DNA of 63,690 bases, counting the filler, from Folioceros fuciformis (Eukaryota), in assembly GCA_049999805.1 (NCBI GenBank). It is 13 parts of 13 records of this genome, joined end to end, with 100 filler letters (N's around TTAATTAATTAA, not from the genome) between each part and the next. Parts side by side here need not be neighbours in the genome. Positions count along the whole stretch, not along the records: positions 1 to 7,477 come from JBNGIO010004905.1; 12 more parts are not named here. One strand, 5' to 3'. Of the stretch, positions 1 through 33,100 are shown one piece after another. Numbering within the stretch: the stretch's first letter is position 1; the number at the start of each line of letters is the position of its first letter. The position numbers and the translations under genes were made by a program. The notes beneath the pieces were generated by a model. The model made no database searches. It saw only the letters and a list, made by a program, of their open reading frames with translations, and had not been told where the DNA came from.

Positions 1-118
1 GCCATAGGCCTCCCGTAGCTTGCCTCCATAGCGTACCCTGCTCCTGCTCCTTGCTGTAATGCCGCTCCTCGCCCACCAATTTTTGGGTTATCCTTGTGTT
101 GTTCCTAGATTCTTGTCT

Positions 119-187
119 TGGTCATCAAAACTTATGCTCTTCCTGAATACTTGTTTGGTTCCATCAGAGCATAAGTTTTGATGACCA
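119..187. repeat. Perfect 22-bp inverted repeat with 25-nt spacer (hairpin)
   Basis: 119-140 TGGTCATCAAAACTTATGCTCT is the exact reverse complement of 166-187 AGAGCATAAGTTTTGATGACCA. Confidence 0.9.
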
Positions 188-539
188 TCTTTGATCTCCC
201 ATCTTTTTGATTAAATAAAATATACAAAGTTTTTGACTATGTATATATGTACATACATCTATCTAAAGTAGACTGAAAAAATCTAGGACACGAGAATTTT
301 ATCAGACTCCTACACCGTTCCCCCAATGTTAGATGTGATCGAATATGTAATCTCTATAGGATTTAGGAAGAAACATGTGCAGACGATATTTCATTAGATG
401 ACAAACGGATGCGTTGAGTGTCTTAATGTTTTATCTTGTCATGCCCTGGATTCGTCATCTCCCCGACGATTTTAAGTTGCTCAGTCCTGGACATCCAAAT
501 CCGTGTCCCAAACACAGTCCGGGATACAGTTAAGAAAGC

Positions 540-3500
540 TCACTCATTGGCAGAAGAAGAAACTGTGGAACTGTGGCAGTCACTGCACATGCGTAGATTC
601 TTCGTTACCACCAGAGGTGTCCCACTCGGAGTGTTCAAGAGACCAAACGCCAGGGTTAGCTTCTCAGTATGATCGCAAACCGCATCTTCCTTTTCTTTCT
701 CAAACAGTGGCTTCCACACCAACCTCGCGTGAGGTACGTGTCCTCCTTCCTGCTTCAGACGTGCATTCGTGCTCTCTACCTTTAGAGACAGATCATCTCT
801 TTTCTCTCCCACCGCAAACGTATGTACATGCTTCTTCACCTCAATTGTTGCCACTGCAGGTTTTTTGTTAGCTCCTACTGCTATTCTCTGAGTTTCAATC
901 CTGTCTACATCGATCCACATGCCTGCGTCTGCGTAGGTATTGGCCATGAGCACATACGAAGACGCCCCTTGAGGGTCCAGCCTCACAATGTTGTCGAAAC
1001 ACCACATCGCCTTCTCTATATCCCCATGATTTTTGCAGGCATTTAACAAAGTCGTTAATCCCATGACATTATTTTGCTCATCGCGCGATAACAGCATCTG
1101 TTGTGCCTCATCTAAATGGCCAGCACGCCCAAGAAGGTCGACCATGCAGTTGTGATGCTCGACAGTGGGTTTCATGCCGTGCTGTTCAGCCATGGAATCA
1201 AAGTGCTTGCGACCTTCGTGGACCAGTCCCTCGTGACTGCATCCTCCTAAAAGGCAAGTAAAAGTAGCATCGTCAGGCTGAACACCGGCAGCTAACATCT
1301 CTTCAAAACAAGCTAGTGCTCTGCGGGCATCGTCACAAGTACCATAACCCAGATATCAGGGCATTCCATGTGACCACGTCCTTCGTGTTCATGCCATCAA
1401 AAACCTGGCGCGCAGTTTTCAGTTCACCACATTTTGCATCCATGTCCACCACACAGGTACCCACCAGAATGTCATCAAGGAGTCCTCTTTCGTCGGTCTG
1501 TGAGTGCAGCTCCCTGCCCATATGTAAGGCACCAGTGCTCGCACAGGCCTTGAGAAGGCGAGCAAAAGTAAGATTGTCAGCCAAAATCAGGCCCTCCTGC
1601 TGCATTTGCCCATACACAACAAGTGCCTCCTGGCCAAGCCCTTGCTGGGCATACCCAGCAATCAGCGCCGTCCATGCCACTACATCCTTGGTGGCCACGC
1701 TTTCGAAGACCTGACGTTCCTCTTCCAGTTCACCACATTTTGCATACATGTCCGTCAGGCAGGTGCCCAAGACTACGTTGTCCAGCAGTCCTCTTTCCAC
1801 AATCTGTGAGTGGAATTGCCTGCCCTTCTGTAAGGCACGAGCACTTGAACAGGCCGTCAGAAGGCAAGCAAAAGTGACATTATTAGCCTCACTTAGGCCT
1901 TCTCGCTCCATTTCTTCATACACATCGAGCACCCCATGTCCGAGTCCCTGCTGTGCATACCCAGAAATCAGAGCATTCCATGTCACCACATTCTTCGAGG
2001 CCAAGCTGTCAAAAACCTGGCGAGCAGCTGCCAGTTCACCACATTTTGCATACATGTCCACCAGGCAGTTGCCCACCACTACGTTATCCAGCAGTCCCCT
2101 GTCAACAATCTGTGAGTGCAGCTGCCTGCACTTCTGTAAGGCACCAGTGCTTGCGCAGGCATTCACGAGACAAGAAAAAGTAAAATGGTCAGCCAAAATA
2201 AGGCCGTCTTGCTCGATTTGTGCGTACAAATCAAGTGCCTCCTGGCCAAGTCCTTGCTGTGCATACCCAGATATCATAGCATTCCATGCCACCACGTCCT
2301 TAGTGGCCATGCTGTCAGAGCCTGTCGTGCATCTTCCAGTTCACCACACTTTGCGTACATGTCCACCAGGCAGGTGCCAACCAGCGCATCATCAATTAAT
2401 CCTCTCAACAATCTGTGAGTGTAACTGCTTGCCCTTGTGTAAAACACCAGCGCTTGCACAGGCCTTCAGAAGACAAGCAAAAGTAACATGGTTGGGCAGA
2501 ATCAGGCCCTCTTGCTCCATTTCGTCATACACAACAAGCGCCTTATATCCGAGTCCTTGCTGTGCATACCCTGCAATCAGGGCATTCCATGTCACAACAT
2601 CCTTTGTGGCCAAGCTTTCAAAAACTTGGCGTGCAGCTTTCAGTTCACCACACTTAGCATACATGTCCCCTAGGCCGTTGCCCACAACTACGTTATGCAG
2701 CAGTCCTCTGTCGACAATCTGTGAGTGCAGCTGCCTGTCCTTCTGCAAGGCACCAGTGCTTGCACAGGCCTTTAGTAGGGAAGCAAAAGTAACACTGTCA
2801 GCCAAAATGAGGCCCTCCTCCTCCATTCGTCCATACACAAAAAGCGCCTCTGTGCCGAATCCTTGCTGTGCATACCCAGATATCAGGGCATTCCACATCA
2901 CCACGTCCTTCGGGGCCATGCCGTCAAAAAGCCGGCGTGCCTCTTTCAGATCACCACATTTTGCGTACATGTCCAGCAGGCAGGAGCTAAGAAACAAGTC
3001 AGGGGGAACGCCACTATGCAACACATCACGGTGCACTTCTCTCCCAGATTCCAAGTCGGCAGCCGATGCACAAGCTTTGAGGGTAGCTACAAAGACGTCG
3101 GCATCCACCTTCGCTCCTGACTTCGCATGTCGTGGTACAGCTGCACGGCCTTGTTAGGTTTCCCATGCTTCGTGTATCCGGAGATTATGGAAGATCACAT
3201 GAAGGCATCTGGTTTACCCACCCTGGTGAGCACATCCATCGCCTCCTCCAGCTTACCTCCGCAAGCATACATGCGCAAGATATGGTTCCCCCAGTATGCA
3301 TTCGACTCGTACCCAAGCCTCACAGTGAGGTCATGAACTCGTCGACCCAGGAACAGGTCCTTCTTAGCTATACACAATTTGAGCAGAGTGTAAAACAGGG
3401 ACTGCGATATGGCAGCGCCTGTCTGCGCCAGAGACTCCAGGGCTCCGACAGCCTCGGCAAGCTTCCCCTGCCGACACAACATGCTCACGGTCCTAGCCGT

Positions 3501-3981
3501 CACGCTTCCGATTCCCGATCCTTCAGGCCCCCCCCTGTTCAGCATTATCCAGAGAGCTCGACTTGGAAGGAGAGGCACCACGACCCAGCTGCATATCCAA
3601 CGAATCGAGCTGCTCATCAACCTAAGCGGGCTTGTACACATTGTTTAACCACAACACCTCGCCGTATCCCTTACGCCGGAAATCAGGCGAACGAGAGCTC
3701 CTCTTATCTCGTCTGTTGTCCCACCACATGGCAGGGTCCAGGAAAAACTGTTGCCACAGGTGCTCCTGCTCCTGGCGACGCCCATCGTTGGAAACCCCGT
3801 CCCCTCCAACAGTTTTCGTCGGAAGTGGAAGAGCTGAGCTCCTAACACTGCTGCACCAGGAGGCTTTGGTTGCCAGGGGTTGAATCCCTAAGATGTGATG
3901 AGAGCAAGACCCTTGTAGAATCCCTGTACACGCACCCATCTGTTGAGTCCACGGCAGGTCTGGTTGCCGTCCTGTGCCCAT
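540..3981 (-). pseudogene. PLS-class PPR-E1-E2-DYW:KP RNA-editing factor pseudogene with N-terminal PDF motif
   Basis: ORFs 3622..3981, 3195..3641, 2392..3108, 2274..2459, 1333..2310 and 540..1298 join into about 23 P/L/S motifs, E1/E2, KKPAVATIEV (KP box), HTEKL and KNLRMCSDCH. Lesions: Trp-position stops at 3622 (TAG) and 3195 (TGA); frameshifts at ~3530, ~3120, ~2400, ~2320 and ~1350. The DYW C-terminus is missing after CSDCHSST (~563). Confidence 0.92.
1361..2990 (-). repeat. About five near-identical 306-bp P-L-S triplet units inside the PPR gene
   Basis: GCATTCCAT anchor recurs at 1361, 1973, 2279, 2582 and 2888 (spacing 612, 306, 303, 306). Unit is 36+35+31 aa. Confidence 0.85.
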
Positions 3982-4855
3982 CGTTCAGGGACCGTGTCGG
4001 AAGATGAGTCTCACAAGCGTCTGTAGCCAGCTTCTCAGGTACCGTTCATGACTGCACCATCCTGAAGGACAGTATCCAGAGACAGGACTGGTAGGTCTCG
4101 AGCGCCAAACGGGCCCCGTGCACGACGAACTCATGTCCCGATTCCCGTGCCGTTTTCTCTATCCAACCGAATGTGTCCTTGGTAACCGCAGACGTTAAAA
4201 GTCATCGTCACTTGAACCCCACTATCTTAATTCAAAATTAAGGAGGTAGTATGGAGGTAGTATGTGCCCAATTCAACATCAAGCCGTCCCAGATGGTCCC
4301 AGAAATACAGGATATTATTTTAGATATTTCTTAGTCGATTATATGTTTATTTATGTTATTTTTTATTATTAAAAAAGAAATAGAAAGTTTATTACTCCAA
4401 AGATTGGAGAAACAATCCGAGTAGGCCAAAGACCAAACCTATTTGTTTGTTATTGTGTATATGTTATATATATGACTCTTTGTCAGAATCTTAACCATGA
4501 CCTAATCAGGTAAACATACCCTTAAATCTCAAATCTTTACGAAGGCATGTCATGTCTATCGGTAGGTATATAATGCAGGTATTTAGGTATGGGGGGAAGT
4601 CGAAAAAGAAGCCAGTTGGGAGGTGCAAAAAAGCCGGGTAATCAGTTTGAGCTTTTTTTGAGAAACGGTTGGTGATGATAATAAGTGAGTACAACAAGTG
4701 GGCGCTCTGGGTTTAGTACGCGGTACGAGTGGTCGGGGGGTCGGGGGTCGGAGGTCGGGGGTGCAGGTCGGGGTCCTGGTCGAGGTCATCGTCATCTTCC
4801 TGTGCCCGGCTCGCGACCGACGTTGAGGCGCGGGCGTCCAAAGGTTCTCCCTCGG

Positions 4856-4956
4856 GACTCGACTCGACTCGACTCGCGACTCGCAGCATCGCCACGGAGC
4901 GGCGGGCCACGCACGGGCCACCCCACGGCACGGCACGGCACCGGCACGGGCACCGG
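4856..4956. repeat. Short GC-rich microsatellites (GACTC)4 and (CACGG)n upstream of LEAFY
   Basis: Seen directly at 4856-4875 and ~4924-4956. Confidence 0.7.
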
Positions 4957-5742
4957 CCAAGCCGCGCCCTCCATTGATGCGCACGCCTATTCTCTCTGCG
5001 GAGGTACACCCACCCACACTGTCACGCTTCCACGCTCCGTGCTGCTTCCTGCTGCCTTGCCTTGCCTTCGCCCCCGTCGCGACCCGCTGCCTTCGCCGGC
5101 TGTCATTCCCGCTGCTGCTTGTCGTGCGTGCGCGGCCATGGCGGCCAGAAGCTGTGCTCAGTCGATTCCCGCACCGGAGTCGGCTGCGCACTCGTTCTTG
5201 CTGCCAGCATTAGGTCGGGCATTCGTCACGGGATTGCGCTTCGCTTGCCCGGGGCAACTGGCTGTAATCCAGGGTTTCGGTGCCCTGGTGCGTGCAGCGG
5301 GCATCGGCATTTTCTTGCGTCGCTGTTTGGAGGTAGGGAGGACCCTGACTCTGCTCAAAACTGAAAGCAGGATTTTTTTTTTTGGTTGCAGAAGAGGAGT
5401 CTTGCGTGCCGCCTTTTCGAGCCTCCGCGGATTTGATTTCGGTGTGGGGAGATGAGACCAAGAAGGTCGAGACATTGTTGGCGGCGGCGGTGTAGTGCTT
5501 TGCGAGGTCGGGGATGAGGTGGAAGTCTGTCAGGGAGGAGTGAGGGCAGTGCGGAAAGCAACCACGGAGACAAGAAAGTCTTAAATCTGGCGCAAGAAGC
5601 TGAAGCTCACAGGCGCACTTATGCGGGCCTTCTTGCCGGCAATCTTGATGCCGAGGAGCTGTCGGATTTTGTAGGAGATGGACTCCTTCCCAAGTGGCCT
5701 CTGCCTACCAGAGCCGTGGCCGTGGTGCACAAGGAGCCTCCC

Positions 5743-7192
5743 ATGTCGCACAGGGACAGCTTCTTGCTCCACAGGGACAGCGCGGTGGTGCCGCGTGACA
5801 TTCGGTTTCTTGATCCGGGGTTTGTTACCATGGGAAAACGAGAGGCCAAGACTCTGGATGAGCTGTTCAGGGATTACGGAGTGAGGCCGACGACGCTGGA
5901 GGCCATGGGACATATGGGGTTCACTGTCGGTACCATTATCAATATGACCGACGATGAGTTAGACTCCCTGATAAAGACAATTAAAGAGAGCTACCGATTG
6001 GATCTCTTGGTCGGGGAGAGGTTTGGCATCAAATCGGCTGTACGTGCTGAGAGGAGGTTTCTGGATGAATTAGATCGTGTTCGGATAGAGATGAAGGCGA
6101 AAAATGAAAACATTGTTGATTTTAAAGGTCAATTCAAGATGTCGGACGGTACGAAAGCTGGGCCTGGAGCTGTCGGCAGTGCCAGTGGCAGTGGCACCGG
6201 TTGCGCTGTCATGGGCAGCATCTGTGGACCGTCTTCGAAAACTGGTAGGACCTTGACCACCGATTTTGCTCTGTGCTTTCCTTCAGCTCCTAGGCTGCTG
6301 TTCGCCGGCAGCTGTCTTATCCTCTGTTTTGGTGATCTTGTGGCACCTCAGCACCCAACAAATCTAGGAAGAAGAAGGATGCTAAAGATGAGCAGGCTCA
6401 TCCTCTTTTAAATGGGAATGACCTTGCAGTCATGAGTCCAGTGGCTCTGCCAGGGCTGCTCTCTGAGCTTAGTAGTGACAGTGAAGGAAAAGGTGGTGGA
6501 CCTGGGAGAAGGAAGCCGGCCAAAAGGAAGCGCAAGGCCAGGGAGCCTGGTGAGGATGGGGATGACAGGCCAAGGGAACATCCCTTTGTCGTGACGGAGC
6601 CTGGAGAGCTGGCAAGGGGGAAGAAGAATGGTTTAGATTATTTGTTCAACCTGTACGAGCAGGCTGGAAAGTACTTGGAGGAGGTGCAGCTTATCGCAAG
6701 AGAGAAGGGGGAAAAGTGTCCGACCAAGGTAAGATGTTCGGTGATTTATCCTTCTAATGATTTGTGGATTTATGGCGAATCTTGATTCAATGTTATTGAA
6801 AATTGACGCAAGAAACATGCGTGAAACTGGGTCATCCTCTCATGCTTCTCATGGGTCTGGTGGTGCAGGTCACGAACCAGGTTTTCCGACATGCGAAACT
6901 GCAGGGTGCTGGTTACATCAATAAGCCGAAGATGAGGCAATATGTACACTGCTATGCTTTGCACTGTTTAGCTAGTGCTGAGTCAGACGAACTTAGAAGG
7001 TCCTCCAAGGAGCGGGGAGAGAATGTTGGGGCATGGTGCCAGGCCTGCTACCAACCGCTTGTAAAAATGGCTAGAGAAAAGGCCTGGGACATAGAGGGGC
7101 TGTTCAACAGCCACGAAAAGTTGAGGATTTGGTATGTCCCTAAGAAGCTAATACAGCTGTGTCATGCAGAGAAGAGTAAGCACTACCAATAG
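5743..7192 (+). CDS. LFY: LEAFY/FLORICAULA transcription factor, 3 exons (5743 or 5830..6244, 6430..6728, 6869..7192)
   Basis: SAM domain [11 protein letters not shown]...MGFTVGT...[21 protein letters not shown]-binding domain [25 protein letters not shown]...[15 protein letters not shown]...[18 protein letters not shown]...IWYVP. GT-AG introns 6245-6429 and 6729-6868 keep frame, and intron 2 is at the conserved K/V position. Start codon is uncertain (5678, 5743 or 5830). Confidence 0.97.
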
Positions 7193-7477
7193 CCCAGTAT
7201 TGCAGGGAGAAAGTTCAATTCTGTGTCTTGCCTCTTGCGTATCTTGAACCCTGTGTGAACGGTATGTGGGCAATGTGAAGTTGCAAGAAGCGACGGCCTG
7301 GAGATGACATAGGCTTTGCAACTGAATTTGTACTCGTGCTCGGGGTCACGGTTGGATCCTGATTGGATCCAAAATTGGTCAAGTGGGTACAAATCACAGA
7401 AATAACCTCACCGGGAGGCCACCGGGTGCTTCACGGGTGTCTGACGACATAAAATGGAGAGTTGAAATTGTCCAGAA

Positions 7478-13331: not shown

Positions 13332-16300
13332 TGTCAATGACGTTTTACAGAATGCGTGTATTTATTTACAGAATGCGTGTATTTATTAACAACACACGTT
13401 CAAGCTTCTTGGAGAGTTGCACTCAGACGTGCGTGCACGATGAAGTGTAGCAGTTAGAGATGGTTAGTTTGGTTTCTTGGCATGTAACCTAACTATGGTT
13501 ATAACAGTCTATGTAACCTAACTTAATAGATAAGGAACTATATTTATATATATTTATTATCTATCTATATAAACCTAACCTACGAGGGTGTGAACATTAA
13601 TCCTTCCAACACCCCCACTTGAGCTCCTTCGTAGTCTAGGGTTTCGTTGATGACTTTACCCCGCCTTCTTTCACTCTCCTGGCGACCGCTGCAAATCCTA
13701 ATTACGCTCGTCGCTTGGATTGATGGTTTGTTGACCAAGTTCATTACCGAGCTCGAAGTGTCGCGCGGCGCACTCTGCACAGACAACGGACCTCCACAGC
13801 ACCTGATCACACCTGCTCTTCTATCCTGCACAATTCACACGGAGGTATCTCTCTCACATTCTCCACCTCACAGCAACTGCTGCACTGTTTGGAAAGCTGG
13901 CCAGAAAAAGATGGTGTGCCGTCAGTCAGCTGATCACTCCCTGCAGGATCGAAGACCTAGTCTACTTGCATGTTTGTTATGCAGCTTCTTCGACAGTGCC
14001 TTCGTCAATAGATCAGTAAGGTTTTCTACTGTAGGAATGTACTGGATGCACATTTGACCATCTACTATGACTTCCCTTATGAAATGGTGATGGATTTCTA
14101 TATGCTTCGTCTTGGAATGAAATACTGGATTATGTGAGAGGGCTATCGCTCCCTGATTGTCATAATGGATCATTGTTGCCTCGATTTGTGCCATGCCCAC
14201 ATCAGCTACGTTCCTCCTGCACCAAATCACTTCCTTTGCAGCTACCGTGACTGCTTTATATTCCGCTTTTGTGCTGGAGGTAGAGATTGTGTTCTGCTTC
14301 TTGCTCATCCAACATATGGGACCACTAGCTAACATGAACACGAATGCAGACAGCGACTTCCTGCTATCCAAGTCTGACGCCCAATCCGAGTCTGAGAATC
14401 CTTCCAAGGTAAGCAGACTCCCTTCAGCTCCTGCATACGTAATGGGAGTTTGTTTTAAATACCTGAAGGTTCTTTTCACTTGACTCCAGTGTTCAGGACT
14501 TGGGTTTTCTAGGTACTGCGACTCCAAACTAACCGAGAATGCTATGTCTGGTCGAGAGACGTTTGCTAAGTAAATCAGTGTCCCCACTGCATGCCTGTAC
14601 AGAGTCCTTACCATCTCCTCTGTCTCTTCTGGTGTGGGGGGGAGTCTGACTCCGTGTGAGCTTTACACCAATAGCAAGCGGGGTAGCTGACCCATTCGCA
14701 TTTTCCAGGTTGAATTTCTTTAAGCTGTCTCGTACATACTTGTGTTGGCAAATGGTCAACTTCCTAACACTTCTCTCTTTACTTATCTCAATCCCCAGAC
14801 ACCAAGTGAGCTCTCCTAGCTCAGTCATCTCTATTCTTTCCTGAGGAGTACTTTGACCTTTTGCAACAGGCTGCACCTACCCTTGGTTGCAGACAAAACC
14901 AGGTCGTCAACATACAACAGCAGGATCAAAAATACTTCTCCTTCACTCATGACATACAAACCTGGGTCTGCAGTACCATGCTGGAAGCCCAGCTTTTTCA
15001 GGTAAGCGTCTATACGCTGGTTCCAAGCCCGTGGGCTTTACTTTAGCCCGTACAGGGTTTTTACCAACTTGCATACTAAGTGCTCCGTTCCAGGTTTGAT
15101 GTATCCCTCCGGCTACTCCATATACAACCTTCTTCAACTTTGCCGTGCGGGAAGGCCGTTTTCACGTCCATTTGCTCCAAATCAAGGTCCAAGTGTGCTG
15201 CTAGTGCCAGCACCATCCTCAAAGTTGTAAACTTTACAACCGGAGCAAAGATATCATTAAAATCCACTCCTAGAATCTGAGAGAATCCTCGGGCAACCAG
15301 CCATGCCTTGTACCTTTCTATGCTGCCATCAGCTTTCATTTTTCTCTTGAAGACCCACTTGCACGAAATCGGCTTTTGTCCTTTCGATAACTCAACCAGC
15401 ACCCAAGTTCCATTCTGAATTATTGATGCATATTCATCGTCGACAGCTCTCTTCCACTGTCTGGCTTCTGGCCCTGAGTACGCTTGTGTCAGTGATACAG
15501 GTTCAGTCGAGTCTATTGTGGCTGTCAGCAACGCTTGGAAAAAGGCATTCGAGGGCTGGGAATCTTCCAGGGTTTCTGCATTGTCACTTGACTGTTCATC
15601 TGCTAATTGTACACCCATTGAGAACTGCTCAGAGGTAACTGGAATGTCTGCAACTCTGGCCCTTGACCCTTTCACTTTTGCTTTAGACTTGTTCGTACGC
15701 CAGTCCTCCATCTCCAGCGAGGGTTCCTTCCAAGGAATGTTCCGACTTCTGAGATTGTAACCACTTCTTGGTTCAGCTGCAAGAGCTTCCTCCACTCTGG
15801 ATATTTCACCATCAAGCATGTCCTCATCTGCCTGCTGAGCCAAGCCAGAGTTGTCCACAGTGTTGTTGTCAACGTCAGCCTCTTCAGGTGCAAGAGTTCC
15901 TTCAGCCTGCTCGAAGTAGGATACTTCTGAATCTTGCATATATGCATGCTTCGCACAGAGACAAATCCCCCACTTGATCTGGAATCCCATCTGAATACAA
16001 TGTGCTTTTTGACATGGCCAGAAGCTTGCCACCATGAGGATGTCCACAACGTAAGTGCCAGACAGCCGCAACTTCCTCCGGAGACAAGTTACCCCCAAGG
16101 TCAGCAACATGCAGCTCAGGTAACTTGCTACTTGCTATGCTTAGCTGATAAATGTCATTAACAGGGTACCCTTCCGCAACAGCTACACGCGGATCCGTAC
16201 TTTGGACTATCGTGCACTTATCCTCTGTAAACAAAACTTGCATTGGCTGATCTGAAGTTAGTTTACGTACTGATAGCAGATTTTTCGTAACTGCAAGTAC

Positions 16301-16651
16301 ATACAGAATATCATCCAGCTCCAAGTTTCGGCCATGATGCAGCTGTAACCTGACTTTGCCAGTTCCAATGATAGGTAACGTGCTTTCATCTCCAACATCA
16401 CTGAATGTGCTTCACTGTACGGTGCATACTCACTAAAGCAAGCCTTATTGTGGCATATGTGCGCAGAGGCACCAGAATCAACGAACCAGTCTAAGGTTCG
16501 AGAGCAAGAAGTGGTAAGGCACACAGTCAGGATTACTTGTGCCGACTTCTTCTTTGGTGCACACAATGTATGTGCTTCAGGAGCTACAGCAGCACCTTCC
16601 TTCCTAGGCTCTTTGGCCTTCTTCTTGCGGCAATCACGGGCTTGGCCAAGT
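13332..16651 (-). mobile_element. Degenerate Ty1/copia lacking the integrase core (zinc-knuckle end, PR, GAG-pre-integrase, RT, RNase H, PPT 13612-13623, 3' LTR 13332-13611)
   Basis: WFVDSGASAH, WHLRCGHP...CEAC, QMDVKTAF, GFSDSDWA, KHIEIHHHFIRE; many frameshifts. Confidence 0.92.
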
Positions 16652-19600
16652 TGCCAGAATTCGCACGACAACAACTTTATTTATTCTTTCAGCTCTTAAG
16701 TACATGAACGTAGCAGTTGAACGGTTTTCAACTGAATCTCGAGAAATAACCGCTAATGCTAATTACCTCCTAACGAGCGACGAAACTAAACCCTAACTAA
16801 CTGGGTTTCTCACACTCCCTCTGTTTCTAGCCGTTAGGTTAGACCTAGTTATTTCTATCCAGAACGACCAGGCGTCAAAGTCCAAGTGCTGCTGTGTGCT
16901 TCTCATGCTTTGCTTTTGACATATCTTTCGTTAAAACGTCTGCCGGACTCTCCTCCGTCGGAATATAGTATAGCTGAACATCTCCCTTCTCGACCAGCTG
17001 CCGTATGTAATGAAATTTCAATTCTACATGCTTTGTTCTTGAATGAAAGATGGGATTCTGAGTCAACGCGATCGCTAACTGTGAATATGAGAATAGTTCT
17101 GTTGCTTCTTCATATTCCATTCCCATGCCTTGTGCAAATTGTCGATGACACACCACATCCTTAGCTGCTTCTGTACAAGCCGAATACTCAGCTTCCGCTG
17201 ACGACAAGCAAATCGTTTGCAGGCGTTTGCTGCTCCATGCGATTGCTGCTGAAGCCGCCATGATCACATAGGCCGCAGTTGAGCGCCGCTTCTCGAGGTC
17301 TCCCGCCCAATCACTGTCCGAGTACGCTCTTAAGCGCAGTCGATTCAAGTTGCCTTCATCTCGGTGTTCTGCTTTGTGTACAAGTCCAAATGATGCCGTC
17401 CCTTTGAGGTAACGCAGTACCCTCTTGACCGCCGTCGAGTGCTCATTGCCATAGGACTGGAAATGCTGACAAACTTGCGAGACGGCTTTGCTGATGTCTG
17501 GTCACGTGGACACTTGCAAGTGTCATAAGGATCCACAGGCATTCCTGTATGGAATCCGCTCCATGAGCTGCAGGTCTTCTTGCTTGAGCGGCAGAGGTAG
17601 TGGCACTAATCGTGCTGATGTTGACATCGGGGTTGCGCAGGGCTTTGCCATCTCCATGTTAAACTTCTCTAAAACTTGCTGTACATACCTTTCTTGGCTT
17701 ACAGTAATTGTGCCTGCAGCTCTGTCTCGTGTAACCCTCATTCCAAGGAAGGAATGAAGCTCTCCCATATCAGACATGGAAAATCTAGTTGATAGGATAT
17801 CCTTTGCCTTTTGCATAGTACCAGCACGGCTGTTGGACACAAAAATCGTGTCATCCACATAGAGTGCTAATAGTACAAATCCCTGAAGATCTCGGAGTAT
17901 GAACACATTGTTATCGGATGGATTTTGCTCAAATCCACACGCAAGCAGGTAGTCTCTAATACACTCGAACCACTTATTAGGGCTCTGCTTTAATCCATAT
18001 AGAGCTTTCCTCAACTTGCAAACCAAGTGTTCGTTCCCAGATCCAGGGTCATATCCTTGTGGAAGTTCCATGTAAATATCTTCCTGAATTCTTCCGTGTA
18101 GGAACGCACTTTGGACATCCATCTGATGGATGTCTAGGTTTTCTTGTGCAGCCAGTGCTATCAGATGTCGAACGGAGCTCAAACGTACAACAGGTGAGAA
18201 CGTTTCCAGGTAATCCTCACCTCGTTTTTGGCTGTAGCCTTTGACAACCAATCTGGCCTTCAAATTTTCCAAGCTGCCATCGGCCTTAAATTTCGTTTTG
18301 AAGACCTATTTTGTGGTTATTGGTTTTCTTCCCACAGGCAAGGGCACAAGCTCCCACGTTTCGTTCTTCAAAAGTGCGTCAAGCTCCTTGTCTATAGCTT
18401 GCTTCCAGCCCGTTGAGTTGGAGCTTGATATTGCTTCATCAAATGTTTGCGGGTCACTGCCCCTCTCAGCCTCTTCAGCAGCCGCATTTGTCTCGGCTAC
18501 CAGCTGATGTACATGATCATAGGTAAGTGGTGGCTCTTGCCACAACTCGCGTGGATTCCTGATTCTTTGTGAACGCCTGGGCTGTTGCTCATGTTGATGC
18601 TGACGAGGTCTCACTTTGCTGCTGCTCATGATCCTCTTGTGCTGTAGGCTATGGAGGTGTAGCATTACCTCCACCTGGATCAGGGGGATTTGCAGTAGGT
18701 GTAGGCGAGCTCACGTACCTTTGGGGTGTCAGCATTTCATGCTGACTAGGTGGAAATTCAGGTATATATGTTTCCACATATTCTGGATAGCGAGATACAT
18801 CTTGTTGATCAATTGCATCTGGTATGCCATCACTGCTCCCTCTGACTTGTGACCACATCAAGTCTTCCTTGAAAATCACGTTTCTCGCGTACGTGACCTT
18901 CCTTGTTCTGGGATCAATTAGTTTGAATCCCTTAACTCCATCAGCATATCCAATAAACATGAGCTGCTGCCCCTTTGGATCCCATTTCTGCCGTTTTTCA
19001 GGTGGTATATGTGCATAAGCGACGCAGCCAAATACTTTGAGATAACTGAGATCTGGCCTGCGTCCTGTCCATGCTTCAAATGGTGTCTTACCAATGAGCT
19101 TCTTTGTGGGAGGCCTGTTCTGAACGTGCGCAGCCACAAAGACTGCCTCTGCCCAATAGATTTTGGGAACGTTAGCTGCTTGCAACATGCATCTCGCAGA
19201 GTTATTGATGTCCTTGTTACGTTTTTCAGCAATATCGTTTTGTTGTGGCGTGTAAGCCATTGTGAAATGCCTTTGAATGCCGTTCTCTCTACGGTACTGC
19301 TCAAATTCGGACGAGGAGTATTCCCCACCATTATCTGAGCGTAAAACCTTTAGTAGCCGAAAGGTGTGCCTTTGAGCATAGTTAAGGTAATCACAGAACC
19401 TTGCAAACACTTCTGAACGTTTGCTCATGAAGTAGATGCACGTGAAATGACTATGATCATCTATAAACGTAACAAAATATCTCTTGCCTCCACATGAGGT
19501 ATTCTCCATTGGACCGCAGACATCTGTGTGCAGCAAAGCTAACAGATTTTGTGCTCTTGATAGGCTTCTGTTGTGTGGCTGCCGCTCCTGCTTCCCAAAG

Positions 19601-22600
19601 ATGCATGGCTCACAAAACTCTCGCACGTTAACAGGGAATTGTGGAACTCCAGTTACTAGCTCTCCTTCCACTATCTTCTTCAGCTTACGAAAAGACGGGT
19701 GACCAAGTCTATGGTGCCACAATGAATTGAAATTCATCTTCGTTAGTTTTACTTCTTATTGATTTTGGGCAATTGCTTTAGCATCTAGAAGAATGAGTCC
19801 TTTTTCAGGCTTCCCAGTTATGAGAACCTCTTCAGAAGCTGACTTCAAGACTATATATGTCATATCCTCCTCCATAAGAATTCGAGACATCTTCACTTGC
19901 CCTAGCGCTATTGTTGAGAGAAGATTTTTCGTTAAAGCTGGGACATATAGCACCGGGTTCAGAGTGAACCGCTTCCCAAAGGTAAGCTGCAACTCTACCA
20001 TCCCTTCTCCTAGAATAGGGCACACTGTATCATCTCCTAGTGCAACTCTTCTCAAGCAGTCATATTTAATGAAATCTTTGATTGTGCCAAAATCATAACA
20101 GAAATGATGTGAGGCTCCTGAGTCCAGGAACCAACACAAACTTTCGAATCTAGCTGCGGTACTGCAGGTTGCTATAAAACACCCAGGGGAGCTAGTTGGA
20201 GCTGTGTTGGAAGCTTTTGATGATGAGATCCCTCTCTTCTGGTCATCAAACTTCTTTTTCCTACATTCCTTCCAAAAGTGTCCGGGCTTCTTACAGTAAG
20301 AACACTTCCCGCTCTTTCTGTTTGTGTTATGAAATCCTTGGTTGTTCTGGTCTCGGTTTTGCCAGGGCTTTGATGACTTCTGGAATTTTCCCTTTGTGAA
20401 TAGTGCTCCTCCATCGCCTTGAGGATGAGAGTTAGATGCCATGCGCCTTGTAATCTCGTGCTGATACATTGCCGAGATTACCATGGCCACTGTTAAATTT
20501 GCCCGTCCCTGCTGCGAGGTAACGAACGCTGACTAGGTTGAAGGTAGAGATGCCAGTAATATCACTGCTGTGTGTTCATCACTGACTGTGGTGCCCAGCG
20601 TGGCCAGTCTAGATTGATTAATTCTAAACCGGGTCACGTGTTTCTCCACTATATCCTGGTCTTGCATCCTTAACTGATAAAATTGTTGGGTTGCCATAAC
20701 AAGCGCCAATGTATCCCTCGCAGCATAGGAGTCTTGTATTTGGTCCCAAGCCTCTTTCGATGTTGTGGTTGATAACATGTGATGCATCGTCTCAGTTGCA
20801 AGGCTTTGCATTAAAAGTGTTCTTGCCTTGCGATCATTCTTCTCCCAGTTCTCAATTGCCGTTGTTTCTGCTGCTGTTGGAGCTTGTGCGTTCACTAGTG
20901 CAGGTTTTGGAACCTGTCCTAACACATTTCCCCAGAGATCCTTGTCCAATAAAATAGACTTCATCCTTGTTGACCAAATTTCAAAGTCGTTTCCTACAAA
21001 CCTATCCTTCTCTTTAAAGTCAAATGTAGTGTAATTATTGACCGTTGTCTGATGAGCCATGGAAGGACGCTTTGGAGGAACTTTAATCTTATGCCGCTTT
21101 GGTTTGGGAGGCAAGGGTGGAGGTGTGGGAACGCTTGATTGACCTAATGACATACACGCCTATAGGGCTAGGCATGTATCAGGCTGCCTTGTTCCTACCA
21201 TCTCACCCCTAGTATAAGATTCTTGGGCTTGTTTGTCAGATCTTCTACACGCCACAATAAGGTCGCACGACTATGCTCTCTTCTCGAATTTGCAGCCTCA
21301 GACTCAAAAAGTATTTCTTGAATAGAGTTTGCGTATGGTTTAAAGCTCCTTCCGGTGCAGTGCGTCTGCACTGGTGGGGAGGTTGATTCTGAAATTGGTC
21401 GTGTGACCAGTGTGCAGGGCTGCTTGCTGTCTCAAAAGGGTTTCCTCTTGGAACTAAGTTTCTGCCCTCCCTTGCGTACCACACTCGCCATTGAGGTGCT
21501 CTTCCTAGCCCGTAGCAGCTCCTCAGGTTCCCATTGCGAGCTCTCCAGGTCCATACTGCTGTCCTCTTGAAAGTCTGTTGGTAGAGGCACTGTCTCCAAG
21601 GCCTCACGGTCGTCATCATGTGGCCCAAGATACCTTCGCCTTGCCAATGCTGCCAGTTCCTTGTGATGAGCAAGTAGACGTTGGTGTAGGTGGAGGTTGC
21701 AATTCTGTTGAGCTAGATCTATGGTATCCATGTCAACAACCCAATCCCCACCCTCGCATCTACTCTTGTAGATATCCCGTTCAGCCTCCATCGTCCCTAC
21801 CTTCAATTGTGGGTCAAGGTTTTCTTGATGAGTTGCATGAAGCTTGGTCATGCACCCCGTCAAGTAGGCATAGTTAGCACGAAACCTACGAGCTTGAACC
21901 ACCAGCATCCTGTGAATCTTGGTCTGATGCTCAGCTTCTTGTTGTGCTTTCTCCTGCTAAAGGTCTTCTAATTGGATGGTCAATTGTTCCCTCTCCACTC
22001 GCTCTCGTTGCCCCGCTTCAAGTCGTTGCTGGAGTTCTTGGTTCGCTTTAGCATTTTGTGCCTCCAACTCATCTAGCTTGCCTTGTAAATCCTTTGCAAC
22101 GTAGACTTGTTCCCGTAGCTGTTCCTCCACCACCTTCCTAGTTTCCTCAGACTGGGCGAGGTCCCTTCGACATGCAATGATCTCATGTGATAAACCTTGT
22201 TAGGAAGTTTGCAACGTGGTCATCTGCTGGGTCAACTTCTCCAATCCTTGCCTTTGCTCACCATCCTTGAGGAGATACTGTTCTCGCTCCTTTTCCAATT
22301 CCTGCACTTTGGATTCTAGTTGTGCCTGGTTTGCATCCGACTTATGTCCTCCTGTAGTAGGGTTGCAATCATTGCACCGGCCTCTCCCCAATTGATGTGT
22401 TATAGGTGTTGGCCACACTGAATGATGTTGCTCCACACTCCCAACGAAGTATCGTTACCTTGGCTTGTGGCGTGTGCTCCTTGAGCTGCATCCCAATTCA
22501 CTGGGCTCCTTCTCCCCAAATCTGGTGCTCCACTATGTGCTTGCACTACTGGTGTCATCGCCAAATCCCCTACCTCGTACCCTACCTCAACTATTGGCTG

Positions 22601-22709: not shown

Positions 22710-22809
22710 NNNNNNNNNNNNNNNNNNNNNNNNNNNNNNNNNNNNNNNNNNNNTTAATTAATTAANNNNNNNNNNNNNNNNNNNNNNNNNNNNNNNNNNN
22801 NNNNNNNNN

Positions 22810-23719
22810 TTACATGCATCAGCCTGAAGGTTTTGTTATAGACGAGGAGAAAGTTTGCCTATTGCTCAAGACACTTTATGGCCTGAAACAATCCAGCCGA
22901 GCTTGGAATGAAACGTCTCATTCTCTGCTGATAGAATTGGATTTTACCTGCTTGGATGTTGATAGTACTGTCTACATATTATGGGATGGAGATGACTTTC
23001 TTATTATATCCGTTTATGTGGACGACAACTTCCTTTTCAGTACTTCCTTGGCGTTGATGGCCAGAATCAAAAGTGTTCTTTTACCTCGTTTTGACATGAC
23101 CGACCTTGGGCAATTGTGTTTTTCTCTTGGTGTTCAGTTCCAGTTTTCTCAAGATAGACATACAGTTGAGTTGCATCAGGAGCACTTTGTCACTCAGCTA
23201 CTTCAGAAGTTCAACATGGCTGAGGCACGCCCTGTGTCAACACCTATGTCAACAAGTGAGAAGCTATCCAAGGAACACTGCCCAACTACACAAGAAGAGA
23301 AGGACTTGATGGCCACTCGCCCATACAGGCAGGCAGTTGGTAGTCTTCTATATCTAGCATCTTGGACAAGGATGGATATATCCAGGGCTGTAAGCAATGT
23401 TTCTCAATTTTTAGAGAACCCGGGAGAGGTGCACTGGGCAGCAGTTAAGAGAATATTCCGTTATCTTAAGGGAACTCCTCGTTTAGGCCTGAAGTATACC
23501 AAGCAAGCTACTGGAATGGAGCTAGTTGGATTTTGCGATGCGGATTGGGCTGGTGATCCGGATTCAAGAAGGAGCATAGTAGCTTATTGTAACCTGTTGG
23601 GTGGCTCAGTGGTATCCTGGTCGAGCAAGAAGCTTACGACCATTTGTCTATCATCCACTGAATCTGAGTATGGAGCATTGTCTCAAGCTGCCCGTGAAGT
23701 CATTTGGTTACGTTCATAG
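22810..23719 (+). mobile_element. Copia RT-RNase H fragment
   Basis: LYGLKQSSRAW, VYVDD, GFCDADWAGD, STESEY. Confidence 0.93.
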
Positions 23720-26880: not shown

Positions 26881-28039
26881 NNNNNNNNNNNNNNNNNNNN
26901 NNNNNNNNNNNNNNNNNNNNNNNNTTAATTAATTAANNNNNNNNNNNNNNNNNNNNNNNNNNNNNNNNNNNNNNNNNNNNAAGATGTTTTATGCTGACGG
27001 GCAGGAGGCCCCCACCTCCAACAGCCCGCCATCCCCTTGGAGGCGCTCGTCGTCCAGCCTCTTGCAGATTCTGGAGTCTCAACGGGCCGCTGCTATCTCT
27101 GCTGTACTGAAGGAGGAGATGCCCCCAAATCGAAAGCAGGGGCAAAGCCGGGAGAGCTCTCACCACCCACCATCTGCCCAAATTCGGATCACTGGCGACC
27201 ATAGAAGTGGAGACTCCATCCGGCGCTCAGGCTCCGATCTTGAGATTTCTCCTTCCCAAGCCTGGCCGGGATTGGGCGCAGGTTGGCACTCTGGAGCGGG
27301 CGCTCAGACCCCTACGGTCGTCACACCAAGATCTGGACCGATGCGAGTGGAGGGAGCGGGCGTAGGCAGGAGGCCACCCGCTTCTCCCTACCCGGTGACC
27401 CGCACAGGCGCCCAGCTTGTGGGAGGCGCAGGCTTGCAAGAACCTGGGGACCTGGTGAGCCTGGGAAAATCGGGTGCAGGCGCGTGGGGAGCGCGCATGG
27501 CCGAGATCAGAGCGCCACCAAACGGGCACAAGATGGGAGCGGGTGTGGCAACCCCGGAGCACCCAACGGGCGCGCCCGTCCGTGAACGGACGTACCCGTT
27601 CATGGACGGGCGCACCCGCCCGTCCTCGGCACCTCCACACCTGTTCGGGGGTTTATTTAAACCCCCTCCCCGGGCCATATCGTTATCTTTTTTAAATACC
27701 TGCCTTGCTCCCTCGCAGCCTGCCTATCCCCTGCCTTCTGCACCCGAGGTTTTTTCCGCCGGCGCCTACCTCCGAGTATTGTGTGAAGACGGAGCCACCG
27801 ATGACGCCACCGCCAACCTTCTCAGCATATCAAACCCAGGAACTTTGGGGCCAGCTGAAGCGGACCGCCGACGAGCTGGTGGACCTTGTCTTCTGACTTC
27901 AACGTTTTTCGGAGCCAGACCCCGGCACATCCTCGGCTGCTCACCCACCGAACTTAAGAATGTTTGCTTGAACCTTTGTGGTTGTACTTCTCCTCTTGTA
28001 TATATTCTGAGAAACTAGCCAGCCTGGACTTCGAAGTTT

Positions 28040-30003
28040 ATGACCACAGGCGGAAACTCTTTTATAGACTTGCTCATCCAGCAATCGAATTCACTTTCTT
28101 TGAATACGACAACCACGATGGCTAGCAACAGCTCCGTGGCACCAACTACAGGCGCCATCCCGATGTTCACCGAGCAAATAAAAGAGCAAGACCGCTTCAA
28201 TGGGCTCCACTACCTAGTTTGGCGAGTCCGGATGAAGTCCTTGCTGGTCGGTAGAGGCGTCTGGAAGGTGGTGGACGACAGCCTCCCTAAGCCATCTGCT
28301 ACCTCCGTCCCCCCGCCCTCGACTGTCGACGTGGAGCGTTGGGACTACATCAACGGGGTCGCCATCGCCCTCCTCATCAGCGGGCTTGCCTCCAGCCTGG
28401 TGCCTAGCGTGGAGTTTCTCACAGAAGCTTCTGCCACCTGGGATCAGCTATCAAACACATACAACGTCAACAATGTCCTGACCCTCTACAGCGTCAGGCA
28501 GGAGTTCAATGCCCTCAGAATGAAGGAGTCCGACACAGTAACTGCCCACACCTCAAGATTCCGGCAACTACGAGGGCAGCTGGCATCTCTCGGCTCGACG
28601 ATGACTGAGACGGATGCCGCCGCCCAACTACTCATGAGCTTGCCACATTCATATCAGCATTTCGTCACCAGTTTGATGCTGATGTCGACACGTGGTGTTG
28701 CTGGAGGATCCTCCACTTCCTCTCTTACAGTGGAGGAGATTATTGGAGCGCTTTATCAACACGAGCAGAGCCGCCTTACGTCGGCAGGCGGGTCCAAGCC
28801 CAAGGTCGACAAGGCGTTTACTGCTCGAGCCACGCCCGTGAAGGCACACGGGAAGCAAGTCAACACCCCCAAGGGCGCTTCGACCTCTGCTTCACCCCTC
28901 CGAACAGGCAACTGCAACTGGTGCGGCACTCCCGGCCATTGGGCGCGGGAATGCCGAAAGAAGAAAGCTAGGGAGCCTCAGAAGCCCGGCCTCCGCCAGA
29001 CTGCTAACGTGGCTGTCAAAGGCAAGACTGAAGACACCAAGACGGTGAAGATTCTCACCGTCTGCATGAGCACTCAGCCGCAGCCAGACCAAGGGTGGTA
29101 CTTGGACAGTGGTGCCACCGCCCACATCTGCAATGATGACGCCCTCTTCTCCAAGCTGGACCGACGTCCCATCAGAGAGAGGGTTCTTCTCGGAGCAAGT
29201 CCAGCCTGCCCATCCATGGCCAAGGGACTTGCGAGTTGTCCCTGTTTGATGGTTCTACATTGACTCTCGAGCCCGTCCTCTATGTGCCACAGATGGGAAA
29301 GAACCTCGTGTCCCTTAGCCAGCTATTGCAGCACAGTCCACTGGAAGTAAACTTCTCCCGCGACTCCTGTTGTTTTTATAGATCAGCCAGTCCTGACTTG
29401 TGCCTCATGGAAGCCATCCCCCAAGATGGCCTGTACAGACTTATTCCGAATAGCACACAAAGCCCATTTGCTTACGTCGCTAGCAAGTTAGCCGAAGACC
29501 TGGCTGCCCTGTGGCATGCCAGGCTGGGTCACATTAACAAGCACAAGCTCATATCCATGTCCTCACAGGGTCTCTATCAAGAGCCACTCCCTAGATGTTT
29601 CCAACACTTGTCAGTCTGCGAATCCTGTGTCCTCGCCAAGCAGAAGGAGTCTCCCTTCCCGAAGGGGGCACATAGGGCTGAGGCTGTGCTAACCTTAGTT
29701 CATGCCGATATATCCGGGAAGATTCAGACTCCCTCCCTTGGTGGTGCTATATACTATCTCACCCTCACAGATGACTTCAGCAGATACTCTTGGACCTTTC
29801 CAATGCATCTGAAGAGCGAGACGTTCACATACTTCAGTGAGTGGCTCCCAGTGGTTGAACGCCAAGCTGGGCAGAAACTGAAGACCTTGCGGAGCGATAA
29901 TGGCACGGAGTTTGTCAATCACAAGTTTGATGCCTTCCTCCTAGAGCGAGGAATTTAGAGACAACTCACGGTACCTTACACTCCACAGCAGAATGGAGTA
30001 GCG
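28040..30003 (+). mobile_element. Copia gag-PR-integrase (frameshift ~29200-29240, stop 29956)
   Basis: DRFNGLHYLVWRVRMKSLL, CNWCGTPGHWAREC, WYLDSGATAH, WHARLGH, VHADISG, RSDNGTEF, YTPQQNG. Confidence 0.95.
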
Positions 30004-30103: not shown

Positions 30104-33100
30104 GAACAGGAGCTATTGGATCAGATGTAGAAGAAGGCTTCAGTGAACAGGAGGATTAGGATCAACAAAGGGGAAGTCAACAATATCGAAAAACTCTGGT
30201 TCGACCACATCAAATTGATCAGGTGCTGGAGCTAACTCTGCATCTACAGGGGGTGAATCATCAGGAGGATTCAGCACAGCTCGTTCATTGAAAGCAATTG
30301 TCTGAGCATGGACAACACATGTGGAAACAGGTTCAAAAAGTTTATACCTGTGAATCCCAGGTGTGTAACCTATAAACACATGTCGTCTGGACTTAAATGC
30401 AAACTTCTGTCTAAGCTTGTCTGGGATATGGGCATAGGCTGTGCTTCCAAAGACTCGAAGATGTGCAACATCGGGCTTGATACCTGTCCATAACTCAAAG
30501 GGCGTACACTTCAGAAGAGAAGACACAGAAGTGCGATTCTGCAAATAGGTTGCCACCTGAACAGCTTCAGCCCAGAAGCGTATAGGTAACCTCCCCTGGA
30601 ACAAAAGAGCTCAAGCAGCATCCTGGATTGTCATGTGTCTTCGTTCTACTCTGCCATTCATATTTGAGTGGTATGGAATTGTAAGCTGTCTAGTAATGCC
30701 ACGTTTCTGACAAAACTCCTGAAACGTATGTGATAGGTATTCCTTCCCATTATCCGAACGGATGCATTTCAACTGAAAACCTGTCTGACATTCGGCATAC
30801 ACCAGGTATCTTTTAAAACTGTCAAAAACATCACTCTTGTGTTTCAACAGCTCAGTTACAGTGAAATGGGTGCGGTCATCCTCAAACACCACAAAGTATC
30901 TGGCTCCTCCCTAACTTGGTGTAGACATAGGACCACATATGTCAGTATGCACTAAATCCAGCACTTGCGTTTGTCTCCTAGGCTTACCTGATCCAAAATG
31001 AGATTTAAACTGTTTGCTGTGCACACAAGCATCGCAAAGATCTAGATCCGGTAAGTCTGATTCAGAGAAACCTGTCACCATCTTTTCTTTGAGCAAACAT
31101 CTCATAGCCTGAATATTTGGATATCCCAACCTACAGTGTCATTTAAATGCTAGGGCAAACTTACTAACTCCCTTCTGTGTTAATTGTGCAGACAGTGGAG
31201 GGACATCTGAGACAAAATCGAGTATGTATAGGTCATATAAGGGGGTGCATCTAGCAATGACGTCTGTGGGTGTGTTTGTTCTCGTTATAACACACTCAAG
31301 ACCCTCAAACAGAATTCTGTACAGGCCTGTTTTTCCCAAAGCCATAGAACTCTCGAGATTTTTCTTCAATGCTGGAACATGCAACACATTTTCTAACTCC
31401 CAAGTTTTGCCATTTTGCAGGGTAATGACAACTGTTCCTATCCCTCTAATAGGAATGTGGGAATTATCTCCCAAAACAACAACATGCTCACTTGGAGCCT
31501 CTCTGTAGTTGAGAAAAGACTTCTTAGAGGAACACATGTGGTTAGAAGCCCCACTATTTAAGAACCACTGGTTCTTACTAGCTGTAACTGAGGAGAGACA
31601 AGACACAAGTAAACCAAGTGTGGTTGCTCTTCTCACATTTGTTTCTTGTTGTTTTCCTTTTCCAGCATCATCTCTTTGCTGGAGTTTGCAATGTCTTGCC
31701 CAGTGCCCTGGCTTGTGACAGTAGTTGCACACGCCAGGTTTCTTCACTGACTGCTGTGAACTGAAGTTAGGGTCAGGCCTAGACGTTTGTCCTCTGCCTC
31801 TACCAAAACTTCCTCGTCCACGTCCTCTTCCTCTGCCACGACCTCTGCCGCGACTTGACCATAAAGCAATATCACTCTGCTTATGTGAAGAGCTTGAAGA
31901 ACCCTTGTTGTTCATGTATTTTCTGTTGGCTTCTGCTTGCAGCAGAGCTCCAACTAACTTCTGAACAGTCAGGGACGTAGTTGCTAGGGTTGTTGCAGTT
32001 GCTGGGGTAACAGTTGTTGTTGCCTGAATACTCGAACTCCAAGTTTCATAGCTTGGAGGAAGGGCAAACAGAAACTGAACGGCAGCCCAACTATCGTTGA
32101 TGAGAACTCCACATGCAGCAAGTCTGGTTGTTGCTGCCCTAAATTTGGCAACAAAGCCCTCAACTGATTCATTTTCTCTCATGCATAGATTTTGCCAATG
32201 AACAGTGGCTGCTCCAACAGAGATCATATCCTTTGCTTCATACATATCATTCAGCAAAGTCCAGACATCGTGTGCATGCTTGGCCAACTTTATATGAGGA
32301 ATCATCTTCTGTGAAATAGATCCAACCAGTATCGTTTTTGCTTTTCTATCTTTGTGATTCCATTCCCATTGCATCCTTTTGAGTCCAAGACACATAATTG
32401 ACACCTTCTGGTGTCAATGTGCCAGATGGCTGACCAGCCACCCTCTCAGAATCAGTATCATTAGTGACATCCATCAGAAGTTTTTCCTCAAGAATGCACC
32501 GAACCCTAAACGACCAAGCATCAAAATTATGAGAAGTAAGTCGATCCTTCTCCTGCAGGCTGTTAGAAGACTGGTCTGCCGCCATAGTGTGTGACCTACT
32601 TTGCTAAGAAGTAGAGGGCCTTAGATTAGCAAGTTGCTCTCTAAGGCTAATGATCTCCGCAGCATGTTTCTTGACTTCCAGTTCCAAACCAACTGTTGAA
32701 ATCTACTCCGATGCACGGTGTTTCTCCAGGCGCTCCAAGCGTGTAGCCAGGATATCTACACATCTGGAAGTCTCCAGCAGTGTAGACATCACATTCAGTA
32801 AAGAGCTGAGGAGAGCATCACGTTGATTCAGGTCAGATTGTTTATGCTCATCTTGTAGCGGATAGGGTTTGCAGCATTTGCAGATTCCAGATGATTGTGA
32901 TGTATAATTCAACGATTCTGTCTGAATCTGCAGGCCAGATTTAGCAGATGGATACACCTCTGTCTGATTGGCGCCGTAAGATTCAAGAAAAGTCTTCAAG
33001 AACCTGGTTCTCTCCTGTTGCTCAACCGAAGATAGAACGTTATTGAAATATAATCTTTCAAATTGTGCCCCAAAATCCTATTATTCAGAAATAGGGACCT

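Follow-up and report, generated by a model that had tools for sequence, protein, structure and literature searches.

An OSB-type PDF motif ahead of a PLS-type PPR array in a decayed Folioceros fuciformis gene, and related PDF-PPR proteins of peat mosses, lycophytes and ferns

The window analysed here is a stretch of 63,690 nucleotides, filler included, from Folioceros fuciformis (GCA_049999805.1), in which 13 parts of 13 records are joined end to end; parts side by side in it need not be neighbours in the genome. Its first part (positions 1-7,477, from JBNGIO010004905.1) carries on the minus strand, at 565-3981, the remains of a gene that joins two modules: a PDF motif of the type known from the OSB family of plant organellar single-stranded DNA (ssDNA)-binding proteins, and a PLS-type array of pentatricopeptide repeats (PPRs), followed by E1, E2 and DYW domains. 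The locus is a dead copy, and its value lies in pointing to a family of PDF-PPR proteins, which sequence comparison shows to be a genuine class of PLS-type PPR proteins, old and recurrent, among the peat mosses, the lycophytes and the ferns.

The PDF motif and the gene that carries it

A sequence-only reading of the window had quoted a peptide from minus-strand positions 3765-3598 and assigned it to the OSB-type PDF motif; the peptide matches the DNA exactly, and the assignment held when put to profile searches. Phmmer comparison of the 59-residue window peptide (P0001) with 1.84 billion cluster representatives recovered 482 proteins at E<=0.001, of which 81 reach E<=1e-10 and 14 reach E<=1e-30. 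Many of these proteins hold several matching stretches apiece, and the named ones include 'Protein OSB1, mitochondrial' (Linum, Vigna, Bidens) and 'single stranded DNA-binding protein'. A profile built from 378 PDF instances, all taken from proteins without PPR repeats, finds a sole match in the six-frame translation of the window, at 3783-3625 on the minus strand (61.7 bits, independent E-value 1.3e-20), a score within the PDF family's own spread (5th-95th percentile 51-85 bits). Measured against 47 aligned single-PDF proteins, the window motif retains all seven invariant columns (W26, D28, P39, D40, F41, L50, P58) and eight nearly invariant ones (W16, F20, P23, W27, R30, K33, K44, W51), and an in-frame TAG at 3624-3622 falls where at least 90% of the aligned proteins have the W of 'P-x-W-V'. 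Judged by its score and its conserved columns, the motif is thus a true OSB-type PDF motif, far beyond chance resemblance. No second copy was found by a regular-expression scan of all six frames of the window, no Pfam family matched the 120-aa open reading frame (ORF) bearing the motif at E<=1, and a word-index protein search, which needs several shared 5-mers, returned no matches for either the PDF peptide or the first PPR stretch.

AlphaFold2, given 47 aligned sequences, predicts for the window motif a fold (mean predicted local distance difference test score, pLDDT, 88.5) with a helix at residues 5-21 and strands at 26-28, 41-43 and 49-50. For a fern relative, the model is confident both in the PDF and in the first PPR hairpins (block mean pLDDT 81-98), and about 10 residues between them are at pLDDT 60 (predicted template modelling score 0.60), which suggests two modules on a flexible tether. 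Structural comparison of the window model gave a best E of 6.5 with Foldseek against the PDB and a best Z of 3.2 with VIA-align against 48,161 chains, and for a model of 59 residues such non-matches speak for a new fold no more than for a known one. By sequence, no PDB chain matched the window motif at E<=10, and a PDB profile search with an alignment that included PPR arrays returned PPR proteins only, because the arrays were included. An experimental PDF structure is apparently missing from the PDB copy searched.

The elements of the locus, all on the minus strand, are listed below in their order of translation.

565-3981, minus: decayed copy of an intronless nuclear PDF-PPR gene
3981-3979, minus: putative start codon ATG, closely preceded by an in-frame stop (3987-3985)
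3766-3981, minus: putative presequence of 72 residues, S/T/G-rich, N-terminal to the PDF core
3625-3783, minus: single PDF motif (GRRQEQEHLWQQFFLDPAMWWDNRRDKRSSRSPDFRRKGYGEVLWLNNVYKPA), from the non-PPR PDF profile, conserved columns and AlphaFold2
3622-3624, minus: in-frame stop TAG where the closing 'P-x-W-V-D' of the PDF has its nearly invariant W
3536-3621, minus: linker from the PDF to the first PPR motif (VDEQLDSLDMQLGRGASPSKSSSLDNAEQ), aligning collinearly with its counterparts in seven intact PDF-PPR proteins
3528-3535, minus: G8 run (C8 on the plus strand) with a +1 frameshift, from the change of frame between tblastn segments at 3535 and 3488
3198-3533, minus: first PPR motifs ('LCRQGKLAEAVGAL...'), frame 1 / -2, with weak Pfam PPR matches
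3195-3197, minus: in-frame TGA in 'DAFM*SSIISGY', at the position of W in PPR S-motifs, from reading of the frame
1347-3153, minus: PLS-type PPR array (Pfam PPR 7e-32 and 4.5e-47)
565-1355, minus: P2-L2-S2-E1-E2 and an apparently KP-type DYW domain (Pfam E_motif 2.9e-12, DYW_deaminase 4.3e-17)

That these elements belong to one gene is indicated by comparison with P0157, an intact Diphasiastrum PDF-PLS-E1-E2-DYW protein of 1125 aa, whose tblastn alignment to the window is collinear: residues 134-219 correspond to 3783-3535, 220-342 to 3488-3120, 226-828 to 3153-1348 and 828-1092 to 1349-564. Seven intact PDF-PPR proteins match, along their N-termini and in the same order, the two window pieces on either side of the frameshift, and the motifs at 3198-3533 align with the first PPR motifs of such proteins. 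By these alignments the PDF motif is part of the downstream PPR-E1-E2-DYW gene and no intron is required. The two repairs put forward in the sequence-only reading, reversion of the TAG to TGG and removal of one base from the homopolymer run, prove to be the right ones: minus-strand frame 0 is open from 3984 to the TAG, and removing one base of the G8 run connects frame 0 ('...DNAEQGG') with frame 1 ('PEGSGIGSVTARTVSMLCRQGKL...'), which runs from 3533 to 3198. The 72-residue presequence may be an organelle-targeting one.

Both defects named in that reading are real, and they are part of a larger set of at least eight. Within the PPR array, where 5.4 copies of a tandem P1-L1-S1 unit of 306 nt (102 aa) occupy 1347-2984 (Tandem Repeats Finder), reading of the minus frames reveals more frameshifts near 3105-3125, at about 2400 and around 2320-2340, and a 1-base insertion is present at 1346, where most paralogous contigs (runs X3, X1 and X4) are without the extra base. 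The DYW domain is incomplete, its Pfam match covering profile positions 1-62 of 93; it breaks off at 565 with the loss of the C-terminal triplet, which in hornworts may be DRH or GRP, the tblastn alignment ending at residue 1092 of P0157, 33 residues before the DYW end. Paralogous contigs carry on beyond 565 with different sequence, where the window copy breaks off. Because it carries two in-frame stops and at least five frameshifts and has lost its 3' end, the locus is a pseudogene, its ORF no longer intact. Past the truncated end, at 120-185, lies an inverted repeat recognized by eye ('tcatcaaaacttatgctct ... agagcataagttttgatga', minus strand), possibly a small foldback or an element resembling a miniature inverted-repeat transposable element.

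Several residues of the DYW domain bear on its type. Its KP box reads 'NKKPAVATIEV' (KPAVA at 863-849) vs 'KRIPGCSWIEV' in P0157; it has KNLRMC vs KNLRVC in P0157, with M at the V95 position of PG types; and 19 residues, counted by eye, separate 'VG' from 'EGG' vs 22 in P0157, the xHP residues being gone. The CSDCH signature is present at 587-573. Set against the features that distinguish DYW:KP from DYW:PG domains in the available text of PMC9478123 (the KP box, HAE vs HSE, the missing xHP and the M), the window domain appears on balance to be KP-like.

The pseudogene is apparently still transcribed, lesions included. Run X3 is RNA, because a 1817-nt contig lacks two introns of a plus-strand neighbour gene, joining 6243 to 6351 and 6726 to 6867. 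Contigs of this run match the locus with no differences on 1379-1663, 3034-3291, 3262-3672 and 3711-4037, and the contig on 3262-3672 spans the TAG, the G8 run, the end of the PDF and the first PPR. The gene also belongs to a large, young family, because thousands of contigs at least 90% alike cover 495-3952, both PDF-holding bins included (2,540 in X3, 3,257 in X1 and 8,199 in X4, counting those placed on 1-7400, from the same organism and a second one); summed depths are not copy numbers, and none were derived from them. The flanking stretches 1-494 and 4200-4693 have cover in the DNA run X1 and none in X3, which is not taken as evidence of transcript ends.

PDF-PPR proteins in other plants

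The sequence-only reading had made its proposal depend on intact PDF-PPR proteins elsewhere, and the database search provided them. Among the 27 PPR proteins collected, 25 have PDF motifs, always N-terminal to the array and in one (19 proteins), two (4 proteins) or three copies (2 proteins). They are documented by RefSeq models, genome annotations and transcriptome ORFs, and come from Sphagnum, Diphasiastrum, Selaginella, Adiantum, Ceratopteris and Pteridium, the named sources being Adiantum capillus-veneris, Pteridium aquilinum, Ceratopteris richardii, Selaginella moellendorffii and Diphasiastrum complanatum. The two PPR proteins without a PDF, from Tasmannia and Papaver, are the sole seed-plant PPR proteins in the set. 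Nine of the 150 listed representatives also match the window PPR array, with the PDF in front in all nine, and Pfam PPR families were found in each of the seven long proteins with an N-terminal PDF that were tested. Of 8,000 candidates scored with a profile spanning the PDF, the linker and the first PPR motifs, 20 reached E<=1e-5, including eight further Diphasiastrum clusters (3-16 members each) and three Sphagnum proteins.

The C-terminal ends of the fusion proteins are diverse. Five of the 25 (P0157, P0161 and P0165-7) have complete DYW:PG domains with PG box, HSE, CxDCH and the terminal ...DYW; another ends after a PG box, and the remaining proteins are either fragments or terminate with E motifs. 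None of the 25 carries a KP box, and among the sequences compared a PDF together with KP is seen only in the family of the window copy.

The history of the fusion was approached through a tree of PDF sequences (FastTree, 414 leaves), in which 9 label changes account for the 33 PPR-linked instances, vs 28-33 in 300 shuffles. The window PDF falls in a clade of 36 leaves (support 88), 25 of them PPR-linked. PPR-linked leaves make up 20 of 21 in a lycophyte and moss group and 6 of 7 in a fern group, and the exception in the former, P0106, is a fragment whose JGI name is PPR protein. The number of label changes fits few origins of the fusion.

PDF motifs were also seen outside both OSB and PPR settings, in P0039, P0091 and P0136. 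One of these proteins, of 1526 aa, has a kinesin motor domain and three PDF stretches, and the others are short, of unassigned kind, with one C-terminal PDF.

A possible role for the PDF motif, and competing explanations

The reading that we consider probable is that the window holds a decayed, apparently transcribed copy of a PDF-PPR-KP gene, that this copy belongs to an old PDF-PPR class, and that the PDF provides a grip on a single strand. Its ancestor would have encoded a presequence and one PDF, joined by a short flexible linker to a PLS-type PPR array with E1-E2 and a KP-type DYW domain behind it, essentially the architecture anticipated in the sequence-only reading, which the collinear alignments and the KP-like features of the DYW domain bear out. 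The PDF would be an independently folding mini-domain of about 55 residues, composed of a helix and a small sheet, with conserved aromatic and basic residues that fit a role in base stacking. As PPR-RNA structures have established, the N-terminus of a PPR array faces the 5' end of the bound RNA while the array acts at the 3' end, so that a tethered N-terminal PDF would be placed 5' of the sequence-specific PPR footprint. There it would most likely add an unspecific grip on a single strand, whether upstream RNA or exposed nucleoid DNA, and a grip on nucleoid DNA would hold the factor where transcripts arise. Whereas the anatomy, family membership and distribution of these proteins can be read from the window and the databases, the ligand of a PPR-borne PDF we infer by analogy with OSB proteins: the OSB1 PDF suffices by itself for ssDNA binding, according to the available text of a review (PMC6963530), and the ssDNA preference of these proteins would favour a hold on nucleoid DNA over a grip on RNA.

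A number of observations weigh against this reading. The taxonomic spread of the class, and its absence from seed plants, are provisional, 150 of the 482 matches having been inspected. The PDF tree is built on 57 columns and its labels are shared by kin, so that few changes are no proof of a single origin. The combination of PDF and DYW:KP rests on one broken locus and on short paralogous contigs, which are too short to link PDF and KP box in one copy, and the KP box occurs in none of the 25 database PDF-PPR proteins. In the window copy itself the HxE motif reads HTE (671-663), which is neither the HAE typical of KP nor the HSE of PG domains; HTE lies one base from either, and in a pseudogene it may reflect decay. 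The exact X3 contigs could come from DNA carry-over in the RNA library. Finally, recombinant OSB1 and OSB2 favour ssDNA over dsDNA and RNA, as given in the available text of PMC4166229, a preference that by analogy would count against the PDF being simply an anchor on RNA.

The grip on a single strand has to be weighed against a role in protein-protein contact or sub-organellar sorting, in which the PPR-borne PDF would, for example, dock to nucleoid or editosome proteins. The predicted small, separately folding module on a flexible linker would be compatible with such a role, as would the lack of any fold or sequence match, in the PDB searches described above, to a solved nucleic-acid-binding domain, and OSB2 is described as forming tetramers in the available text of the same review (PMC6963530). 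However, the invariant PDF residues are aromatic and basic (W, F, R, K), as expected for base stacking, and the OSB1 motif needs no partner domain to bind ssDNA (PMC6963530, available text), and we regard the docking role as unlikely. Chance neighbourhood, with a stray piece of an OSB gene or a small gene of its own placed by accident upstream of a PPR pseudogene to which it is unrelated, would account for the different frames of PDF and PPR array and for the stop between them. It is hardly credible in view of the order, spacing and linker, which are collinear with those of the 25 intact fusion proteins; moreover, the stop lies on a conserved W and the frameshift inside a homopolymer run, the exact contig on 3262-3672 spans the end of the PDF and the first PPR, and Pfam finds no SSB/OB domain in the PDF-bearing ORF.

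A third alternative, that the PDF is specifically tied to DYW:KP and directs U-to-C editing to transcription bubbles, R-loops or ssDNA, would be in keeping with the union of PDF and KP-type DYW in the window copy and with the ssDNA binding reported for OSB PDF motifs in the available texts of PMC6963530 and PMC4166229. The database fusion proteins argue strongly against it, with no KP box among the 25, full DYW:PG domains in five and no DYW domain in most. Moreover, the fusion is present in Sphagnum and Selaginella, which to our knowledge have C-to-U edits only and no U-to-C editing. The tie between the PDF and DYW:KP or U-to-C editing, as advanced in the sequence-only reading, thus did not survive the wider comparison and is very improbable, and the ideas of a coupling to transcription or to R-loops, or of ssDNA as a substrate for editing, are speculative. 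A broader extension of the preferred single-strand grip would see PDF-PPR proteins as ancient organellar RNA-editing and processing factors, ranging from bryophytes to ferns and lost in seed plants, whose clamp on nucleoid ssDNA or nascent RNA places both C-to-U and U-to-C editing where transcription occurs, and may cover part of the job of seed-plant helper proteins; this we offer tentatively and hold to be doubtful.

Programmable RNA base editors are under development from PPR editing factors, some of them U-to-C editors based on DYW:KP domains, and natural accessory modules that alter PPR affinity or location are of practical interest. A DNA-binding motif on dozens of PLS-type PPR proteins of mosses, lycophytes and ferns would help to address whether organellar editing is coupled to transcription and the nucleoid. 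The PDF itself, which from its occurrences looks like a portable module, would then be no longer a hallmark of the OSB family alone.

Elsewhere in the window, a LEAFY/FLORICAULA homologue, the neighbour gene spliced in the 1817-nt X3 contig, lies at 5390-7218 on the plus strand (Pfam SAM_LFY 5.8e-32 on 5518-6243), and an ORF of the Clp protease family at 51285-52304, also plus (CLP_protease 2.9e-55), has by eye 'GNAWGEAAM' at the expected ClpP catalytic serine and may be a ClpR-type subunit. Pieces of Ty1/copia-type retrotransposons are found at 13934-21159 (minus), 22766-23719, 28019-29958 and 31139-35374, with integrase core, GAG-pre-integrase and reverse-transcriptase-like ORFs, some broken by N runs.

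Comparison with known systems

The sequence-only reading had taken the architecture to be undescribed, and no account joining the PDF motif and PPR proteins was found within the literature searched, some key papers and supplements lying outside that search. The most recent OSB family survey consulted, which dates from 2026 and covers 59 species with 182 OSB genes, does not contain 'PPR' in its available text (PMC13393729); that of a moss PPR review names RRM, SMR and NYN as extra domains and has no occurrences of 'PDF' (PMC9459714); and the hornwort genome paper has none of 'OSB' (PMC7027989). A replication review that contains both 'PDF motif' and 'pentatricopeptide' treats the PDF, in its available text, only within OSBs (PMC6963530). 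Within this literature, the PDF-PPR class of non-seed plants seems to be undescribed.

The window gene shares with the OSB family a PDF of about 50 residues with the same invariant W, D, R, PDF, LW and P-W positions and a score within the OSB-type range, and variable copy number of the motif is likewise common to both. In OSB proteins the PDFs are C-terminal and come after a central SSB/OB-like domain, as described in the available texts of PMC6963530, PMC4166229 and PMC13393729. By contrast, the window gene is without an OB-like domain (Pfam on the 120-aa ORF) and has only 72 residues before the motif, and in both the window and all 25 fusion proteins the PDF stands at the N-terminal side, ahead of the PPR array.

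With the PLS-type PPR-E1-E2-DYW editing factors, the gene shares its P1-L1-S1 triplets, its E motifs and the HxE...CxxCH signature of the DYW deaminase. DYW:KP PPR proteins are candidate U-to-C editors of hornworts, lycophytes and ferns. The window copy resembles this subgroup in having KP instead of the PG box, in the M of KNLRMC and in lacking the xHP residues (PMC9478123, available text), and differs from its described members in the added N-terminal PDF, the HTE motif, the broken gene and the lost DYW end. A parallel in overall plan is offered by PPR proteins with an added N-terminal RNA-binding domain, such as maize PPR4, which also combines a PPR array with an N-terminal general single-strand nucleic-acid-binding module, the RRM (PMC9459714, available text); PPR4 is, however, a P-class splicing factor with an RRM, whereas the proteins considered here are of the PLS class and carry the PDF, which has until now been linked to DNA and not to RNA.

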